Positions 3,575 through 18,269 of a stretch of DNA of 28,906 nucleotides are shown here, one piece after another. This stretch comes from Escherichia phage CBA6. The first letter of the stretch is position 1. The number at the start of each line of letters is the position of its first letter. A model generated the notes under the pieces. It saw nothing but the letters and a program-made list of their open reading frames with translations. It had not been told where the DNA came from and did no database searches. The stretch lies in the sequence record KM389305.1; one strand, 5' to 3'. Made by a program: the position numbers and the translations under genes.

Positions 3575-4906
3575 ATGGTTGCCAAGAGCATTACGGTCAG
3601 TCGGTTCGTCAATACCGACCATAAAGAGTTTTCAATTGTCAACAGTATCCGTCAGGTTCCTCAGATCATTGATAGCCTGAAGCCCAGCCAGCGGAAGATT
3701 CTTTTCGCCGCGCTGGAGTATGGGAAGGAAGAGATCGTAGATCGCCTGGGCATGTTTGCTGCAGCGCGTACCAACTACAAATCCGGCGGCGATAACATGG
3801 GCGGCACTATCATCAAGATGGCCCAGGCGTTCCCTGGCTCTAACAACATCCCTTACTTCGACCGAGATGGCCAGTTTGGTTCCATCATGTCTCCGGAAGC
3901 CAGCTCAGCCCGATACATATCCGTGTCGGTGTCTGAGGTGACACGCAAGATCTTCCGCAAGGAGGATGAAGGCATTCTCACCTATCACTATCTTGGTGAA
4001 GAGCGGTTGGAGCCTAAGTTCTTCCTCCCTGTCATTCCCATGTTCCTGGTGAACGGGATGCAGGGTATCGGCTCGGGGTACGCAGCTGACACCCCATGCC
4101 ACAGCATAGAGTCCGTTTTCGCCAGCCTGAGAGCACTTCTCCGTGGCGAAGACCCTACGGACTTAAAACCGTACTGGAATGGATATAAAGGAGAGACAGG
4201 CTATACTGAGGAAGGAAGAGCATACAGTCGCGGCATCTTCAAACGCATCAATGCTACAACCCTTCACATCACCGAGGTCCCAATTGGTTGGTTCGCTAAA
4301 TCGTATGAGACCAAAGTTCTGTTGCCGTTGTATAAGGCGGGTTTGCTCACTGAATACGCCAATGACACGACCGAAGACGGCTGGGACATTACTGTCGTGT
4401 TCAAACGTGGTGAATTGTCTAAGCTGGATGATGCACAAATCGAGCAGATGTTCAAACTATACTCTGCGAACAAACCCGTCTGGACGGCATGGGATGAAGA
4501 TGGTGTCATCCGACGTTATTCTGGGTGGAAGGAGATGCTGCTTTCCTTCTTCAACTATCGTTTGATCCGTTATGAAGACCGTCGTCAATACCTGTTAAAG
4601 GAGATGACTGATAAAATTCATCGCCTGAACAACCGTGCATTATTCATCAGTTGGGCTGTGGTTACGGATATGCGTCGCAGCATTACAGAACTGAAAGCGT
4701 TGTTTCAAACGGATTATCCAGATTTTGATGGTGATCTTGATGAATTATTCAAGATGTCTTTATCATCAATCACGTTAGACGCACGTGAACGATTGTTGAA
4801 TCAGATAAAGAATCTGGAAGAACAAAGAGAAGAATTAAATAACAAACAAGACATTGATCTCTACAATGATGATTTAGATGATCTTGAAAAGGCATTAAGC
4901 CTATAA
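3575..4906 (+). CDS. gp52: DNA topoisomerase II medium subunit (GyrA-like breakage-reunion subunit)
   Basis: ATG at 3575 two nt after the gp39 stop with GAGGATGA upstream; SSARYISVSVSEV is consistent with the active-site Tyr region; adjacency to gp39. Confidence 0.85.
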   Translation: MVAKSITVSRFVNTDHKEFSIVNSIRQVPQIIDSLKPSQRKILFAALEYGKEEIVDRLGMFAAARTNYKSGGDNMGGTIIKMAQAFPGSNNIPYFDRDGQFGSIMSPEASSARYISVSVSEVTRKIFRKEDEGILTYHYLGEERLEPKFFLPVIPMFLVNGMQGIGSGYAADTPCHSIESVFASLRALLRGEDPTDLKPYWNGYKGETGYTEEGRAYSRGIFKRINATTLHITEVPIGWFAKSYETKVLLPLYKAGLLTEYANDTTEDGWDITVVFKRGELSKLDDAQIEQMFKLYSANKPVWTAWDEDGVIRRYSGWKEMLLSFFNYRLIRYEDRRQYLLKEMTDKIHRLNNRALFISWAVVTDMRRSITELKALFQTDYPDFDGDLDELFKMSLSSITLDARERLLNQIKNLEEQREELNNKQDIDLYNDDLDDLEKALSL

Positions 4907-4910
4907 ATCT

Positions 4911-4928
4911 GGAGGGTGAATTCCCTCC
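4911..4928 (+). promoter_or_regulatory. GC-rich stem-loop GGAGGG-TGAATT-CCCTCC between gp52 and the next gene
   Basis: Perfect 6-bp inverted repeat 5 nt after the gp52 stop; not followed by a T-run; about 20 nt upstream of the ATG at 4949. Confidence 0.35.
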
Positions 4929-4948
4929 AAACCTGTGAGGGGTTCACC

Positions 4949-5227
4949 ATGTTTGTATATTTCCGCAGTCTCTCATTACTGGCATACGTCTATTGGCTGT
5001 TTGATATTCTGTGTCCTCGATTCATCAAAGAGGAAGTTGCCTTCGTAAATTACGAAGGACAAGAAGACGTGTGGATACCGTTGTGTGCCCTTTCTGACGT
5101 TACCGAATTGGATGATGTTGGTATGGTTGGGACCATGCGTTCTTTTAATCTGTTCGGGTTTGCCCTCTTCCCTAAATTAATTGGGGATTTACGCCCTTAT
5201 TTTCCTGATGAAGAAGTGGGGGCGTAA
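4949..5227 (+). CDS. hypothetical protein
   Basis: ORF 4916-5227; start at ATG 4949 (MFVYF) is preferred because GAGGGG lies 6 nt upstream and the earlier ATG sits in the hairpin. Confidence 0.4.
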   Translation: MFVYFRSLSLLAYVYWLFDILCPRFIKEEVAFVNYEGQEDVWIPLCALSDVTELDDVGMVGTMRSFNLFGFALFPKLIGDLRPYFPDEEVGA

Positions 5228-5282
5228 TATGTCAATGGAGATGGTTGATATCCCCGAACCTGAAATATGGATAGACTAGATT

Positions 5283-5696
5283 ATGAAATTACTCGGTTAT
5301 TTTCGTTCTTTACCCACTGGATCTCCTAATGGGGGCCAGTTATATTCTGAAGTCAAAGGGGATGTTGACGACACCCATATCGCCCTATATGCTCGGGATA
5401 TACCAGACCCAACTAAATTTGACCGCCGCGTAGTGGCCGCTGCCAACAGATATGGTGATGTCATCGTTGTAAGCGCCCGTCACCACGACAAATTAATGAA
5501 TGCGCAACTGAAACGATTGAAGGAAGCAGGTGTTATCGAAAACACCCGCACGCGTGAACAAGGGTTTATCGATAACTATGGGCAATGGATGTCTAGGGAA
5601 GAGGCGGCTATTGTAGCCCGTGAAGCTGGACAAACCAATCAAGTTCGTTTGAAGAACACTCCTTTCCGTGAACTCTTTTCCGAAGACCTCTATTGA
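5283..5696 (+). CDS. hypothetical protein (137 aa)
   Basis: Clean ORF with ordered-looking composition; conserved-looking blocks YGDVIVVSARHHD and QGFIDNYGQWMSREEAAIVAREAGQ; no family could be assigned. Confidence 0.5.
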   Translation: MKLLGYFRSLPTGSPNGGQLYSEVKGDVDDTHIALYARDIPDPTKFDRRVVAAANRYGDVIVVSARHHDKLMNAQLKRLKEAGVIENTRTREQGFIDNYGQWMSREEAAIVAREAGQTNQVRLKNTPFRELFSEDLY

Positions 5697-5744
5697 AGAA
5701 AATGGCGGTATAATTGCCGCCTAACCCCATATTGAGATAATACC

Positions 5745-5969
5745 ATGGCAAATGAAATTGGAGATATTGCCCAGTTCCGTGCTATTTCGCGACGCCTGAA
5801 ATCTTATGGACTCATCATAGAAGAAATAGATGAAGATGTCCAAGGCGTATTGGAAGGAATGTTTGGGAGTACAGTTGGAACTGAATTGTTTGAACTTTTA
5901 AAAATGGCGGCTGACAATCAATTCGTCGAATACATCTCTGAAAATGCTATTAATGGTCTGAATAAATGA
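5745..5969 (+). CDS. hypothetical small acidic protein
   Basis: 74-aa ORF; TATAAT-like hexamer at 5709-5714 upstream. Confidence 0.4.
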   Translation: MANEIGDIAQFRAISRRLKSYGLIIEEIDEDVQGVLEGMFGSTVGTELFELLKMAADNQFVEYISENAINGLNK

Positions 5970-6202
5970 ACGAATTATACGAATTTGAACGCGCATATGA
6001 ATCGGCTTCTGTTTCAGGATATATGCAACGTTTGTATCAAGAAATTTGCTTTCGTTTGATGTCGCGCGGGATATCTGTTAATCGTGTCATGTCACAACCA
6101 GACAGTTTTATTATTACACTCACCGACCATCGCCAGAATATGTGTATCATTCAGGTCAGTTGTGTCGACAACGAAATTATACAATGGAGACGTTACGCAT
6201 GA
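5966..6202 (+). CDS. hypothetical protein
   Basis: 78-aa ORF; start overlaps the upstream stop and its own stop overlaps the macro-domain start (ATGA), suggesting translational coupling. Confidence 0.4.
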   Translation: MNELYEFERAYESASVSGYMQRLYQEICFRLMSRGISVNRVMSQPDSFIITLTDHRQNMCIIQVSCVDNEIIQWRRYA

Positions 6203-6804
6203 CCACTTATATTATCACAAATGGCGATTTATTAAAAGCCGCCACGAGTTTCAATCTTATCAATGCCTTTGCTCACGGCGCAAATTGTTGGTCTGTAATG
6301 GGCGCGGGTATCGCCAATCACGTTCGATTGAATTTCCCAGAGATTTACCGCGCCGACCAATTAGATGAACGTGGTCCGGAACAGCGCTTGGGAAACATGT
6401 CCTATGCGTTTGATCATGACACTGGTGTCTGGGGATTCAATTTGTATACTCAATTTTACCCAGGTCCCAATGCTCGCATGCCATCTATCATTAGCTCAGT
6501 CCAGATCATGTTTGAACAAATTCATGATATCGTTGAAGCCAAAGCTGATGAAACTGTCTATGTTGGTTTGCCCGCCATCGGTTGTGGTATTGGTGGCTTG
6601 AATCTCACACATGTGGTGGGCCAGATTAACAAAATCGCCGAAACCATCTTTGAAGATACTCGCCGCCGCGTGGTCCCAGTATTCTATATTCGGGAAGGGG
6701 ATGGATTCGAAAAGGATTTACAAGAACTCTCTCAAATGATCGACTTTGGGATCTCGGTTGTTCCTAATGAAGAAGACGTCATCGAAGAGGAAAGCATCGG
6801 ATGA
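6199..6804 (+). CDS. macro-domain protein (ADP-ribose binding / ADP-ribosyl hydrolase family)
   Basis: Start at ATG 6199 in an ATGA overlap; motifs ITNGDLLKA, NAFAHGANCWSVMGAGIA and VYVGLPAIGCGIGG match the macro-domain signature. Confidence 0.55.
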   Translation: MTTYIITNGDLLKAATSFNLINAFAHGANCWSVMGAGIANHVRLNFPEIYRADQLDERGPEQRLGNMSYAFDHDTGVWGFNLYTQFYPGPNARMPSIISSVQIMFEQIHDIVEAKADETVYVGLPAIGCGIGGLNLTHVVGQINKIAETIFEDTRRRVVPVFYIREGDGFEKDLQELSQMIDFGISVVPNEEDVIEEESIG

Positions 6805-7145
6805 AATCTGAAGTGACGGAAGAAATGTTGGCTAAAGCCGTTCTTCATCCCAAGGTACGGTTTGCATTTTTGCCCACTCGTCTACATGACGGTAATTGGG
6901 TGTGGTTGGAGCATTATGTTCGCGCTCCTATCGGTCTCTACGCCCAACTGCGTTACGGTGGCGAAGTAGAATTGAAACAATATCGCGTCGGTGGAGGGAT
7001 GGGTGGTTTTGATGATGGTGAATATTTTCCTCATCGCAATTTCGCCATGAACGATAATTCATATTTCAGAGTTGAATATGCCACCGCTTGTGGGACATAT
7101 CCTTTGAAACTTCTTTTAGAGAAAGCGGGGGAAACCGATGTATAA
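6801..7145 (+). CDS. hypothetical protein
   Basis: 114-aa ORF coupled to the macro-domain gene by an ATGA overlap. Confidence 0.45.
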   Translation: MKSEVTEEMLAKAVLHPKVRFAFLPTRLHDGNWVWLEHYVRAPIGLYAQLRYGGEVELKQYRVGGGMGGFDDGEYFPHRNFAMNDNSYFRVEYATACGTYPLKLLLEKAGETDV

Positions 7146-12095: not shown

Positions 12096-12314
12096 ATGAT
12101 TACCGCAGGATACACATTAGATTTGTATTGTGAATGCGTGGAATGCAAATCTTGTGATTGGGCTTGGCAAGAGCACCACCCAAGATGCGGTATGAAGTCT
12201 TATGCTGGTGAAACTTGGGCTGATTGTGCTAGACAAGCCCGTTCGGAAGGATGGGTGATATGCAGGGACAAACAAACTTGTTTTGCCCCTGGACATCCAA
12301 GGAAATCAGGGTAA
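12096..12314 (+). CDS. small Cys-rich protein (putative zinc-binding)
   Basis: 72 aa with 8 Cys including CECVECKSC; start directly follows the upstream stop. Confidence 0.4.
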   Translation: MITAGYTLDLYCECVECKSCDWAWQEHHPRCGMKSYAGETWADCARQARSEGWVICRDKQTCFAPGHPRKSG

Positions 12315-12926
12315 CAACAAACCGTCATCTTCAGGTTTTGTCGTTTGTTTGTTGGAAGTTTCCTTTTTCATCTGCTCTTTCAACGCATTAATTCTTTGAG
12401 CGCGGCGTCGATCTTCCATTTCGACCTCGCGCTTTTTCTTAGAACGTAGCGCAAATTGTTTTTTAACTTCAGGATCTTCTCCTGGTACCAAATGCTCTTC
12501 CGTCCAAATAATGAATTTCCAACCAACTTTAGCACAATGCTCTTTGGTGGCGGTCCACTTCGCTTGGTTCACCAGCCATGTACGCATCGAATTATTGAAC
12601 GTTGATTCCTTCATCGTTTTTGTTTTTCGGGGTTCTTTAATTTGGTCTTTGGGTTTTATTTCAATAAGGGTTATCTGTAACTCTTCAGAGTCTTGTCGAC
12701 GAGTCCATACTTTCAAATCCATAAAATAGCGGTGGGCGCGACCATCAACTGGAGAGATATATGGGATTACGGTTTCTTCGGATGACCAATAAACAATAGC
12801 AGGATTCATATCACAGAATTTGAAGGCGACAAGTTCTAGTGATGAACGAAAAACTATTTTGTTCACATCGCCTTTATATTTCTTGGGATTTACGGGAACA
12901 TACTTCCCCTGCAAATACATAGCCAT
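12306..12926 (-). CDS. head-completion protein gp4-like, with a PD-(D/E)xK nuclease-type signature and a charged C-terminal extension
   Basis: AGGA SD 7 nt before the ATG; motifs YKGDVNKIVFRSSLE, HRYFMDLKV and LIEIKPK (D...E-x-K) resemble gp4 and T7 endonuclease I as recalled from memory; Lys/Arg/Glu-rich C-terminal 50 aa. Confidence 0.45.
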   Translation of the reverse strand: MAMYLQGKYVPVNPKKYKGDVNKIVFRSSLELVAFKFCDMNPAIVYWSSEETVIPYISPVDGRAHRYFMDLKVWTRRQDSEELQITLIEIKPKDQIKEPRKTKTMKESTFNNSMRTWLVNQAKWTATKEHCAKVGWKFIIWTEEHLVPGEDPEVKKQFALRSKKKREVEMEDRRRAQRINALKEQMKKETSNKQTTKPEDDGLLLP

Positions 12927-12978: not shown

Positions 12979-13947
12979 ATGGCGAATTTCAAGTCGACCA
13001 TCGATAAGATCAAAGTTCTGAACACAAAAGGCTTGGCCAAGTCTCAGAAGCAATTGGTCTATCCATTAGACATAACAGGGGGTAAAACCCTCGGCCATTA
13101 TGTTCTATTCAACATCAACCGAATATCTGGTTATTCATATGGGGACACCACAACCCAAACCGTCGAAAATCCGATACAAAATCCATTGGGTAAGACTCCT
13201 GTGGTTTATGGTTCTAAATCGGGGTCTATTAGCAAATATGCTTGGGCGCGTCATGTCCGCTCTAACGAGTCAATTGTGTTGTGTATGCCCGAATCCATTA
13301 CAACCAACTATGGCGTTGGCTGGAACGGCTCCGAGTTGGGATTAGCAGGTATGGGTGCCCAATTCTTATCACGCGCCGTCCAAGATATGAGTCAATTCAA
13401 ACTTGGGGATGCTTTGAATGTTGGGAAAGAAATGGGGAGATTTGCGGCAACAAAGGCCATTCAATCTGCTTCGGAAGCAATTCCTTTCTTGCCGACAATT
13501 AATGCTCATGATACATTAGAATTGTTTACAGGTACGATGACCAACCCGTATGTGGAGATGATTTTCCAAGGGGTGCGCAACCGAGAAATCCCGTTCACAT
13601 TCAAATTCACTCCAAGATCGCAAAAAGAGGCGAAAATGGTGCGGGAGATTATCCGTTTATTCAAGATGCACATGTATCCAGAATACAAATACAACAAGAA
13701 TTCCAGCGCATTCTATCTTCATCCATCCACGTTTGATATCACGTTCATGGTGCAGGGGGAACGCAATAAATGGTTACATCGAATATCGACTTGTGTTTTG
13801 TCAAACATGTTTGTAAACGAGACGCCGGATTCTTCATATGCTGTCCACAAAGATGACAGCATCGTGTCGACACAAATCGACATGACGTTTATAGAACTAG
13901 AACCGTTGCACAAAGGCCGCTTTGATACCGAAGGCGACAGCTTCTAA
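12979..13947 (+). CDS. virion structural protein, possibly baseplate tail-tube cap/initiator (gp48/gp54-like)
   Basis: 322 aa, first gene of a plus-strand late block; assignment rests on size, position and beta-rich composition only. Confidence 0.3.
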   Translation: MANFKSTIDKIKVLNTKGLAKSQKQLVYPLDITGGKTLGHYVLFNINRISGYSYGDTTTQTVENPIQNPLGKTPVVYGSKSGSISKYAWARHVRSNESIVLCMPESITTNYGVGWNGSELGLAGMGAQFLSRAVQDMSQFKLGDALNVGKEMGRFAATKAIQSASEAIPFLPTINAHDTLELFTGTMTNPYVEMIFQGVRNREIPFTFKFTPRSQKEAKMVREIIRLFKMHMYPEYKYNKNSSAFYLHPSTFDITFMVQGERNKWLHRISTCVLSNMFVNETPDSSYAVHKDDSIVSTQIDMTFIELEPLHKGRFDTEGDSF

Positions 13948-13953
13948 GGAGAA

Positions 13954-14379
13954 ATGATGAAACTCTTATTTGTTGCATTGTTATTCTCTACAGCGTGTCA
14001 TGCTTCAGTGACTTACATCGGTGATTCTATCGCACATGGTTACAAGATAGCAAACAACGGGCAAGGGATAACAAAGATTGGTGCGAGTCCGAGGTCCGTC
14101 TTGAATATGTTAGAAATATCTGATCCGGCTGACACTTTAGTGCTGTCAACAGGGGCATCTAACGATTGCGGTGACATTGATCAAATCAATCAAAATATTG
14201 ACTTTGCTATTTCCAAATTCAAAATGGTATATGTGATGGACGCTCCGCACTGCCCAACGAAAGTGAGAACAGACATATTTCAAAAATGTACTGGTGGTCG
14301 TTGTACTGTTTTATACTTTGTTCCAGGGAAGGACGGCACTCACCCTCGATCATATAACAAACTGGAGCTGATGCCATGA
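13954..14379 (+). CDS. secreted SGNH/GDSL-family esterase (small)
   Basis: N-terminal signal peptide MMKLLFVALLFSTACHA; SGNH blocks in order: YIGDSIAHGY (block I), LSTGASNDCG (block III), GKDGTHPRS (block V, DxxH); GGAG SD upstream. Confidence 0.55.
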   Translation: MMKLLFVALLFSTACHASVTYIGDSIAHGYKIANNGQGITKIGASPRSVLNMLEISDPADTLVLSTGASNDCGDIDQINQNIDFAISKFKMVYVMDAPHCPTKVRTDIFQKCTGGRCTVLYFVPGKDGTHPRSYNKLELMP

Positions 14380-14933
14380 AATATTTTGAGAAATTTCCAC
14401 TCGTGTGGCATCAATTAATTGGTGTCAAAGAGGATGACCAAGTCCTGTTGCAGAACTTAACACGACGGGTTATGGTTATTAAGAAAATTAGGGACATAGA
14501 AGGGCTTCTCCTGCCGTATACTGTTTTTGATGGGGAAACCCCAAGGTCTTTTGCCGAACGCGTCTACGGTTCCTTCGAGCTGTTTTGGATCCCATGTCTT
14601 ATCAATGGTATCATGGACATCGCAGAGGACTGGCCGAAACCGGAGCGCCGTATCATTGAAGAACTGACTGCTCGATACGGCCTTGACGGAATGTGGGATG
14701 TGAAATACTATGTTGACGAATTCGGTCATGAAACAGATCCTAGAGCAATACGTTTAGCATATGGCCTTGGTTCTATGGATGATTCCACGATTATCGCCAA
14801 CTATGGTCTGACAGGTATTACATATCATGATGATGCTATAAACAAAAACGAAGCCAAACGGAATATTCAGGTTCTAGACCCAGATTATGTTTCTTCCTTT
14901 GTTAATCAGCTGGAACAGGAGCTGACCAAATGA
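14376..14933 (+). CDS. baseplate-associated protein (gp53/gp28-like, uncertain)
   Basis: 185 aa with ATGA coupling on both sides inside the baseplate block; family not established. Confidence 0.3.
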   Translation: MKYFEKFPLVWHQLIGVKEDDQVLLQNLTRRVMVIKKIRDIEGLLLPYTVFDGETPRSFAERVYGSFELFWIPCLINGIMDIAEDWPKPERRIIEELTARYGLDGMWDVKYYVDEFGHETDPRAIRLAYGLGSMDDSTIIANYGLTGITYHDDAINKNEAKRNIQVLDPDYVSSFVNQLEQELTK

Positions 14934-16328: not shown

Positions 16329-18269
16329 ATGGCAGATAACAATCAACCGACACCAGGGCAGCAAGACATCGTCAAGGTTTTGGATAAAATCAAAAAAGAA
16401 ATGATGGAGCGCAAGCAATTGCGCGCCCAATCCGAGACGAATAAACAGCTCGCCGATGTCAACAAACAACTGCAATCTCTGAAGACACGACAGGCGTCTA
16501 ATCAGGAGCAGAAAGTCCCGCCAATTAAATTCCCATCGGTGAATGATATTGTTGGTGGGTTCGTCCGCGTCAGTCCTATTTTCACAAGGGATTACAGCAC
16601 TTGGATGAAAGACACCGTCAGTCTAACAAAGGACGGCAATGAAGAACTGATGCGTATCGCCACCAAGATCGAAAAATTTGGTGAAGCAGCGAATGGTCCG
16701 GTTGACGACATGTCGGTTGAATATCTTGACATGATATCAGATCAATTGGGCGCGGCCAACGAAGATAGTCTTGAACGCCTTGATGGATTAAAGGATAAGC
16801 TGGCGTTGGTCGGAGGGGAGATCGTAAACCTGACTGACATAATGCTTCAAACGCATAAGGACACTCTTGATTTCAATAAAGATGCCAGTAACGAAACTGT
16901 TACCCGCCTCGACAGCATTGATGACAAATTGGGATACATGAACGAAGATCTTAATGATACTCTGACACGTATCTATGAAAGTGATCAAAAATATAGAGAA
17001 GAAGAGAAATTCCGTCGTGGTGAAGAAGGTAAAGAAAACAAGAACAATCCAGAGGCTGGTTCTATCCCTCCGTCTGAGCCTAAACAAGATGGTCAATCTT
17101 CTGGGTTAGGCGCGGCGCTGGGGGCACTCCTTGGACTGGGCGCGTTAAAACTCCTGATGTCCCCATTAAAACTTGTTGGTGGCTTCATTAAATTATTCAT
17201 GGGGTTTGGTGCTGGGATCGGCGGGTTGCTTGCGCCCCTGAAAGCAGCAACCAAGATGCTTCGAGTTGGACCTCTGGCGTTAATAACATCTGTATTTGAA
17301 TTCGGTAAAGGGTTCTTTAATGCTAAAGAAATCCTTGGTAAAGCGCAAGTATCGATCGTTGATCGGGTTCAGGCAGGGATAACAGAGCTGGTCGGTAGTT
17401 TCGGGGATCTCGCTGATTGGGTTGCTGAAATATTCGGATGGAACAATGCTGGGTTTGGAAAGGCGTTCCGTGAACAAGTGCTGAAAATGACCGAAGCGCC
17501 CGTGCGTTGGTTGAACTCGATTGTTGATTGGGTCACCAACGATTTGTTTGCGGGTATCGGGAAGAGTACATCACTGACCGAAATACCTGGTAAACTTGCA
17601 GATAACTTGCAAGGCCAATTGATAAAATTGGTTGATTGGGTAACGGGTGGAATAACTGGCCTGATAGATGACGGCATGGCGGCTGCAAACAAAGTCGTTG
17701 AAGACATGAAGAAAGGATTTGCAGAAAACGTGAAGAAACCTTTCTTCAACATGTTGAATGCTATCACCAATGCGATGTTTGATATCGTGGATAAGTTTGT
17801 CAGTATTATCCCCGATGCGTTGGGTGGTGAAACGGCCAGGAATAAGATGGCGGAAGCAAGACAGTCTATGCTGATAAGCCAAGACGATAAGGCTCCTGAG
17901 AATGCCTCTGTACCACCGAACAGTCAATCGCCAGCACAACCTAATGCAGATATCCGCACGCTGACTCCAATGCCTTCTGGGGTTTCTTCGGATGCTGTGA
18001 ACGTAACAGATCGCACTTCTCAATTGAAAGATGCATATGCTGGGATCGGGGGAGGTACTCTGGGTGGGGCATATCCGGTTCAGGGGAGAGCGGCTAACAA
18101 CATTGAGGAAGTTAAATCTTCCTACGCCAACCCACCAGCCAGTGTGGTAATGCCTGTACAACAAAATGTTGATAACTCGAAGAAAGTCAGTACGACAAAC
18201 AACTTCAACAGTTCACAACTGGAGCCGTCCAACCGTACTGACGCAGGTCGTATTCTTTGGGATTGGTAA
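16329..18269 (+). CDS. tail tape-measure / baseplate hub protein (gp29-like)
   Basis: 646 aa; N-terminal coiled-coil-like charged region; central Gly/Ala-rich hydrophobic segment GLGAALGALLGLGALKLL...GFGAGIGGLLAPL; SD GAGAGGTGA. Confidence 0.45.
   Translation: MADNNQPTPGQQDIVKVLDKIKKEMMERKQLRAQSETNKQLADVNKQLQSLKTRQASNQEQKVPPIKFPSVNDIVGGFVRVSPIFTRDYSTWMKDTVSLTKDGNEELMRIATKIEKFGEAANGPVDDMSVEYLDMISDQLGAANEDSLERLDGLKDKLALVGGEIVNLTDIMLQTHKDTLDFNKDASNETVTRLDSIDDKLGYMNEDLNDTLTRIYESDQKYREEEKFRRGEEGKENKNNPEAGSIPPSEPKQDGQSSGLGAALGALLGLGALKLLMSPLKLVGGFIKLFMGFGAGIGGLLAPLKAATKMLRVGPLALITSVFEFGKGFFNAKEILGKAQVSIVDRVQAGITELVGSFGDLADWVAEIFGWNNAGFGKAFREQVLKMTEAPVRWLNSIVDWVTNDLFAGIGKSTSLTEIPGKLADNLQGQLIKLVDWVTGGITGLIDDGMAAANKVVEDMKKGFAENVKKPFFNMLNAITNAMFDIVDKFVSIIPDALGGETARNKMAEARQSMLISQDDKAPENASVPPNSQSPAQPNADIRTLTPMPSGVSSDAVNVTDRTSQLKDAYAGIGGGTLGGAYPVQGRAANNIEEVKSSYANPPASVVMPVQQNVDNSKKVSTTNNFNSSQLEPSNRTDAGRILWDW

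Follow-up and report, generated by a model that had tools for sequence, protein, structure and literature searches.

An insertion between gp48 and gp53

The window analyzed here is a 28,906-nucleotide (nt) stretch of Escherichia phage CBA6 (record KM389305.1). It belongs to a Kuttervirus (Ackermannviridae, ViI/CBA120-like), and a 25-kb stretch of it is about 96% identical to Salmonella phage Vi01 and its relatives. Among its baseplate genes lies a small open reading frame (ORF; 13954..14379, + strand) that is predicted to encode an exported protein with a minimal SGNH domain, referred to below as the mini-SGNH protein. The upstream flank is gp48, the baseplate tail tube cap (12979..13947, +; phrog_230, E 2e-115), and the downstream flank is gp53, a baseplate wedge subunit (14376..14933, +; phrog_232, E 3e-60), assignments that also draw on the annotations in relatives. 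An earlier note on this DNA had described the ORF as a secreted esterase gene embedded in the baseplate block. The gene does lie between gp48 and gp53, but it is a rare accessory insertion, found in 1 of 282 related records, and is no normal part of the baseplate module.

Translation of the window confirmed the 141-amino-acid (aa) ORF reported previously, starting from the ATG at 13954; a second ATG at 13957 would give a product of 140 aa. The Shine-Dalgarno sequence AAGGAG (13946..13951, +), which serves gp53 in relatives, here serves the inserted ORF, as seen from direct reading and from the junction alignment. The spacing from its GGAG core (13948..13951) is 2 nt to the first ATG and 5 nt to the second. 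Because the Shine-Dalgarno sequence is only 2 nt from the first ATG, the start at 13957 is the likelier one, and the second Met was also picked by gene callers on metagenome contigs (protein P0001). The same two lines of evidence identified a GGAG in the 3′ end of the insert (14364..14367, +), 8 nt upstream of the gp53 ATG, which replaces the Shine-Dalgarno sequence that the insert has taken over. As the earlier note had it, the ORF is coupled to the next baseplate gene by an ATGA, in which the TGA stop codon overlaps the gp53 start codon (14376..14379, +). The final three codons of the ORF, ATG CCA TGA, are resident phage sequence and lie outside the insert.

Alignment with CBA120 and Salmonella phage SeF6a (ON809764) defined a 415-nt insertion (13955..14369, +) relative to other Ackermannviridae that matches the ORF precisely. 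In CBA120, where 13 nt separate gp48 from gp53, the junction reads TAAGGAGAAA followed directly by GATGCCATGA, and the 415 extra nt of the window sit exactly between these two halves. We found no flanking repeats at the insertion. Scans for sigma-70 promoters and terminators around it gave matches at chance level, no commoner than in shuffled sequences. The insert therefore differs from a classical phage moron, which has its own promoter and terminator: it is approximately the ORF alone and has its translation signals in common with its neighbors.

We then asked how widely the insert is distributed. SeF6a was the only insert-bearing record among 282 phage records that match gp48-gp53. The gp48-gp53 span is 1955 nt in the window and 1535 to 1541 nt in every other relative that matches across both genes, including Klebsiella, Shigella, and other E. 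coli and Salmonella Ackermannviridae. A tblastn search of 50,697 phage records with the mini-SGNH protein matched SeF6a and one distant prophage only, a tblastn search of plasmids matched nothing, and blastn detected no copy in 5,426 complete E. coli genomes. No donor was found at the DNA level, the nucleotide similarity of the closest homologues being confined to short patches.

The insert is 100% identical in the window and in SeF6a, while the two phages differ at 22 nt in gp48 and at 5 nt in gp53. Six metagenomic contigs bear the same insert with one substitution (S45N) and, among the matches listed, Kuttervirus gp48 and gp53 flank it on four contigs. Because the insert is identical while its flanks have diverged, and because metagenomic copies exist, the gene is a recent acquisition that either spreads from one Kuttervirus to another or stays in place as recombination exchanges its flanks. 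We rejected the possibility that its product is a virion baseplate component, as nearly all relatives with the same baseplate lack the gene.

The same junction is occupied by a different gene in Dickeya phage phiDP23.1 (KM209320, Limestonevirus-type). There it holds a 547-aa ORF (4014-5657 of the examined stretch) with a DUF7487 match and weak Vsr, DUF559, and REase-like matches. We ruled out this ORF as an SGNH relative (hhalign probability, 0.1%); it resembles a nuclease and is probably a mobile one. Since an unrelated nuclease-like gene lies at the same place, the site tolerates insertions, and Ackermannviridae seem to have a hot spot for insertion at the gp48-gp53 junction.

A predicted exported SGNH domain and its relatives

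The first 17 residues of the ORF product (MMKLLFVALLFSTACHA; 13954..14004, +) form a predicted Sec signal peptide, judged by hydropathy and by conservation among homologues, with cleavage predicted after A17. It consists of a basic n-region (MMK), an h-region (LLFVALLF) with a mean Kyte-Doolittle hydropathy of up to 2.9 over 9 residues, and a c-region (STACHA) followed by Ser. By these heuristics it has the features of a signal peptidase I (SPase I) substrate, namely, a positive n-region, a hydrophobic core in the range of 7 to 15 residues, and small residues at −3 and −1. Of 42 stand-alone homologues, 30 have a comparable hydrophobic stretch at the N terminus, ahead of the catalytic motif, as do all 13 of the closest, and the Ala at −1 (A17) is invariant across the four closest sequences. 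The hydropathy and the conservation of the segment in the family thus support the earlier proposal of a Sec-type signal peptide cut after CHA, and the mature domain is indeed very short, about 124 aa after the predicted cleavage.

We considered two other fates for this segment. Processing as a lipoprotein by signal peptidase II was rejected: Cys15 is conserved in no homologue, and the lipobox is weak, S-T-A-C15 having Ser at −3 where the pattern [LVI][ASTVI][GAS]C calls for Leu, Val, or Ile. We take the context of Cys15 to fit only a permissive PROSITE-style lipobox pattern. SPase I cleavage after A17 is therefore likelier than lipidation. An uncleaved membrane anchor was also rejected, because the hydrophobic core, at only about 8 to 10 residues, is too short. 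In the rest of the protein, the cysteines at positions 72, 100, 112, and 117 are kept in the 12 closest sequences. These four subfamily-conserved cysteines fit an oxidizing compartment and, judging from the sequences, are probably disulfide bonded.

The catalytic blocks of the SGNH superfamily could be located in the protein. Block I is G23-D24-S25 (14020..14028, +), with Ser25 the presumed nucleophile; it is nearly invariant, is found 8 residues downstream of the predicted cleavage, and in a profile search matched the GDS of OatA (5UG1 and 5UFY). Block II is Gly43 (14080..14082, +), which presumably contributes a backbone NH to the oxyanion hole; it is nearly invariant in 34 sequences and directly follows strand 2 (residues 37 to 40) of the structural model described below. 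Block V is D127-G-T-H130-P131 (14332..14346, +), whose Asp and His would complete the triad. D127, H130, and P131 are nearly invariant, and this part of the family profile gave weak matches to three GDSL lipase structures, in their C-terminal block.

Block III takes a variant form, G67-A68-S69-N70-D71 (14152..14166, +), in which Asn70 or Ser69 would supply the oxyanion-hole side chain. It aligns with T-G-V-N-N of OatA, and the 12 closest sequences all share G67, S69, and N70. As a GxSND motif it is one residue longer than GxND, and the canonical GxND of distant members aligns one column earlier. Of the three blocks that the earlier note had named, GDS (G23-D-S25) and DxxH (D127-G-T-H130) therefore stand as described, but GxND does not, the literal sequence being G67-A-S-N70-D. 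Across 34 stand-alone members, the near-invariant residues are D24 and S25 (GDSIAxG), G43 (VGAsP), S65 and G67 (LSxGxSN), and D127, H130, P131, and Y134 (DGxHPxxY).

An AlphaFold2 model built from the 34-sequence alignment had a pLDDT of 92 and a pTM of 0.85 and comprised five strands alternating with four helices. It replaced a model built from 4 sequences (pLDDT, 71.6), which had given marginal Foldseek matches. The predicted fold is a three-layer α/β/α sandwich with a five-stranded parallel sheet, as in SGNH proteins. When the model was compared with the PDB using Foldseek, the best match was the SGNH acetylhydrolase PAF-AH (E 1e-5; probability, 1.00), and the top 11 matches were PAF-AH and FI6-design scaffolds. 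A separate comparison of the family hidden Markov model with PDB sequences ranked OatA domains first (E 3.5e-4), with blocks I and III aligned. Structure prediction, the check that the earlier note had proposed, thus yielded an SGNH fold, and the geometry of the triad is presumed from the conserved blocks together with the confident fold. The product combines this predicted fold with Ser, Gly, Asp, and His residues that are conserved where they would be expected.

The family lies outside current curated models. Scans of the mini-SGNH protein against Pfam and NCBIfam gave no match at E values up to 10, scans against PHROG and PADLOC gave no usable match, and a phmmer search of the PDB with the single sequence returned nothing. 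A fused relative (P0060) matched PF13472 below threshold. The identical protein of SeF6a is labeled “putative lipase” in GenBank, so that its basic identity as an SGNH- or lipase-like protein had already been hinted at there; its phrog_14008 “lipase” label was not reproduced by our PHROG scan. Our literature searches turned up no paper on the family, and the gene goes unmentioned in the SeF6a paper.

A word-indexed search of 5.8 billion proteins returned only three clusters, at 99%, 49%, and 48% identity. A HMMER profile search of 1.84 billion representatives recovered 135 clusters at E<1e-3, 27 of them at E<1e-10. In IMG/VR, a pattern scan revealed no relatives. Two forms of the domain are represented, the first being a free exported protein of 130 to 155 aa. 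One free homologue was located among the accessory genes of a 236-kb phage contig; the NadR-like gene of this contig shares 75% identity with its counterpart in Klebsiella phage Miami-type jumbo phages. A further one lies on a similar 31.6-kb phage contig. Phytobacter sp. V91 was the only genome matched in a pattern scan of 185,579 species representatives. It has two diverged copies, 43% and 50% identical to the mini-SGNH protein (6001-6447 and 5914-6384 of the examined stretches). The copy with 43% identity directly follows gpA of a P2-like prophage, a cargo position, and the second copy has genes for conjugative transfer around it (TraI_2 relaxase and TraF_2).

In the second form, the domain is embedded within large proteins, among them tape-measure, tail-lysin, and type IV secretion system (T4SS) proteins. 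A wall-cutting domain was also present in 16 of the 28 multidomain members examined: Phage_lysozyme2 in five, SLT in five, and a GH24 lysozyme, M23, a weak CHAP, and a SleB-like Hydrolase_2 in one each, with the remaining two recognized through PHROG endolysin/lysozyme models. One fused member combines SLT with a T4SS domain, and SLT occurs together with the mini-SGNH domain in three further metagenomic giant ORFs. A Helicobacter pametensis prophage (BK070131) provides an example within a virion protein. Its 892-aa tape-measure protein (4429-7107 of the examined stretch) carries the same ~120-aa domain at residues ~523 to 651, directly upstream of a GH24 lysozyme at residues 674 to 800. The domain is 30% identical to the mini-SGNH protein (E 1e-8) and has the motifs GDSIAHGY, VGA.P, LSSG.SN, and D.IHP..Y. 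Whereas this copy is internal to an ejected virion protein and adjoins a lysozyme, the protein of the window is free, predicted to be exported through Sec, and presumably made late.

A separate subgroup was seen in metagenomes. Its open frames of ~203 to 220 aa have the SGNH domain at the extreme N terminus, apparently without a signal peptide, and end in an uncharacterized C-terminal extension of ~80 aa.

Candidate substrates and roles

We tentatively favor the view that the mini-SGNH protein is a periplasmic O-acetylesterase, made late in infection, whose best candidate substrate is O-acetylated peptidoglycan. The associations of the family point to peptidoglycan rather than to lipopolysaccharide or capsule, because fused members are joined to lysozyme, SLT, M23, and CHAP domains and because OatA is the nearest solved structure. 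The gene would be read with the late baseplate genes and, to judge from the sequence, translated from the former gp53 Shine-Dalgarno sequence, leaving gp53 with the new GGAG provided by the insert. Sec export with cleavage after Ala17 would place a minimal SGNH serine esterase of ~124 aa in the periplasm, where its four conserved cysteines would probably form disulfide bonds. Going by the conserved blocks and the fold, Ser25, His130, and Asp127 would act as the catalytic triad, and the backbone NH groups of Ser25 and Gly43, together with Asn70 or Ser69, would form the oxyanion hole.

The enzyme would then most likely act on an O-acetyl ester carried by a glycan of the cell envelope, with the 6-O-acetyl group of N-acetylmuramic acid (MurNAc) in peptidoglycan as the foremost candidate. 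O-acetylation at C6 of MurNAc inhibits lysozymes and lytic transglycosylases (PMC6174289). Because of this block, removal of the acetyl group would make the sacculus of an O-acetylating host cuttable by the muralytic enzymes of the phage, at lysis or at entry. Known or predicted peptidoglycan O-acetylators include Helicobacter, the host genus of the BK070131 prophage, along with Campylobacter, Proteus, Dickeya, and Cronobacter (PMC6174289). The gene would be neutral in hosts without wall O-acetylation, which would fit its rarity.

Several observations weigh against this proposal. Its main weakness concerns the usual hosts, Salmonella and E. coli, for which peptidoglycan O-acetylation is not known; E. 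coli is said to lack it, and Salmonella does not appear in the table of O-acetylating species (PMC6174289). The known host may therefore lack the proposed substrate, SeF6a having been isolated on S. Typhimurium. The closest stand-alone homologues are in elements of Enterobacterales (a relative of the Klebsiella-type jumbo phages and the Phytobacter prophage and conjugative element). The fused members are only ~30% identical to the mini-SGNH protein, and their substrate specificity may differ. Finally, block III departs from the canonical GxND, and the signal peptide was judged by heuristics only.

The most serious competitor, which we consider rather unlikely, is a periplasmic de-O-acetylase of O-antigen, of Vi or another capsule, or of enterobacterial common antigen. 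By changing the receptor on the infected cell, such an enzyme would bring about superinfection exclusion or reduce the sticking of progeny to debris. The receptors of Kutterviruses are O-antigens and capsules, several of which are O-acetylated, and an export signal joined to a carbohydrate-esterase-like SGNH fold would suit this role. Two further observations favor this alternative: Salmonella is not known to O-acetylate its peptidoglycan, and the 43%-identical homologue after gpA of the P2-like prophage occupies a site for prophage-expressed cargo, where a lysis helper would make little sense. However, a tailspike or depolymerase domain was found in none of the 28 multidomain relatives examined, whereas 16 had peptidoglycan hydrolase domains; the nearest structures by profile and by fold act on MurNAc; and no PADLOC defense model was matched.

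It is improbable that the protein is a lipase or lysophospholipase that attacks periplasmic membrane lipids or lipoprotein links and so aids breakage of the outer membrane at lysis. The SeF6a annotation says as much, TesA and lysophospholipases belong to the SGNH superfamily and appear among the structural matches, and presumed late expression and export would be compatible with such a role. Yet the best structural and profile neighbors act on carbohydrates rather than lipids, the relatives are fused to wall enzymes that cut glycans and peptides, and the PHROG scan reproduced no lipase family match. If the target is either peptidoglycan or O-antigen/capsule, the database label “putative lipase” is probably misleading.

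The same superfamily includes O-acetyltransferases, and PatB sets a precedent for a stand-alone periplasmic SGNH transferase (PMC6174289). We nevertheless think it very unlikely that the protein resembles PatB or the C-terminal domain of OatA (OatA-C) in moving acetyl groups from a host membrane acyltransferase onto peptidoglycan or another glycan. The 141-aa ORF has no AT3 or MBOAT domain. Since O-acetylation blocks lysozymes and lytic transglycosylases, the fusion of relatives to these very enzymes is the opposite of what a transferase would lead one to expect: beside a muramidase in a wall-penetrating protein, an esterase module makes sense as a de-O-acetylase and none as an acetyltransferase. 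OatA keeps Val or Ile ahead of the oxyanion Asn, which limits hydrolysis, and esterases have Ala or Gly there (PMC6174289). The mini-SGNH protein has Ala68 at the aligned position, which would be the esterase state with respect to Val490 of OatA, and it retains the block II Gly; several homologues have Ile, Val, or Leu at this position, and the alignment is offset by the extra block III residue.

Least probable of all is a neutral passenger with no role in infection, for although the insert is extremely rare (1 of 282 records) and its insertion-tolerant intergenic site holds an unrelated nuclease-like selfish gene in the Dickeya phage, its frame is intact with all catalytic residues kept, it varies by no more than 1 nt across at least three diverged phage backgrounds and a number of metagenome samples, and its junctions preserve the ribosome-binding sites of both genes.

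We compared the mini-SGNH protein with known SGNH enzymes. In OatA (PDB 6VJP, 5UFY, and 5UG1), the C-terminal domain forms the tail of an AT3 membrane protein, and its reaction is the transfer of acetyl groups onto peptidoglycan. In contrast, the mini-SGNH protein is a free exported domain without an acyl-donor partner, with only the signal peptide upstream of the domain. It is shorter (~124 aa versus 155 to 179 aa), is 14 to 17% identical, and differs in having Ala at the position aligned with the OatA Val/Ile and in keeping the block II Gly. Ape1 of Neisseria and Campylobacter (PDB 4K3U and 8GLD) is a periplasmic SGNH serine esterase that removes the MurNAc 6-O-acetyl group so that lytic transglycosylases can act (PMC6174289), the role proposed here for the mini-SGNH protein. 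Unlike Ape-type esterases, the protein of the window has no carbohydrate-binding module and no patA/patB/ape cluster. It is thus neither an OatA nor an Ape and, at most, works like Ape. Virion-borne phage SGNH esterases, such as the G7C tail fiber gp63.1 (PDB 4QNL), are large structural tail proteins that have no signal peptide and act from outside, whereas the mini-SGNH protein is small, has a predicted export signal, and is expected to act from within the infected cell. In the literature searched, we found neither a free exported phage SGNH esterase made inside the infected cell nor a de-O-acetylase module in tape-measure proteins.

A broader interpretation, possible but decidedly speculative, is that the minimal SGNH family (~120 aa) is a “de-O-acetylation module” of mobile elements that strips the MurNAc 6-O-acetyl group for the elements' own muralytic enzymes. 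The Kuttervirus copy would then have been captured recently, as an accessory for host range or lysis in O-acetylating Enterobacterales. Peptidoglycan O-acetylation is a widespread bacterial defense against lysozymes that also blocks lytic transglycosylases, and how phages and conjugation machines get past it has been little studied. A portable de-O-acetylase would explain a recurring unannotated segment of tape-measure and tail-lysin proteins, would offer a very small esterase for resensitizing lysozyme-resistant pathogens, and would point to a determinant of host range in Kutterviruses, phages employed in the biocontrol of Salmonella and E. coli O157. If O-antigen or capsule is the target instead, the protein would be a phage-encoded enzyme of a new type, one that edits receptors from within the cell.

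Neighboring genes

The T4 late-promoter motif TATAAATA does not occur in the window. Besides gp48 and gp53, the neighbors of the mini-SGNH gene include genes for a 462-aa tail protein and a 646-aa tape-measure-like protein. The latter (16329-18269, +; phrog_3799, function unknown) has weak tape-measure matches and a long hydrophobic Gly/Ala/Leu-rich section in its middle, and some relatives' annotation calls it a “tail length tape measure protein.”

On the opposite strand lies gp4, which encodes a head completion or head closure protein (12306..12926, −) and has a weak PHROG endonuclease match. A gene of equal length (206 aa) at the gp4 position in two compared loci has a precomputed Pfam match to PF08722 (Tn7 TnsA-like N-terminal nuclease), and in phiDP23.1 a segB-like endonuclease gene (2213-2950 of the examined stretch) adjoins gp4. 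A 72-aa ORF with eight cysteines (12096-12314, +), which is phrog_926, of unknown function, in SeF6a, overlaps the convergent gp4 gene by 9 nt at its 3′ end.

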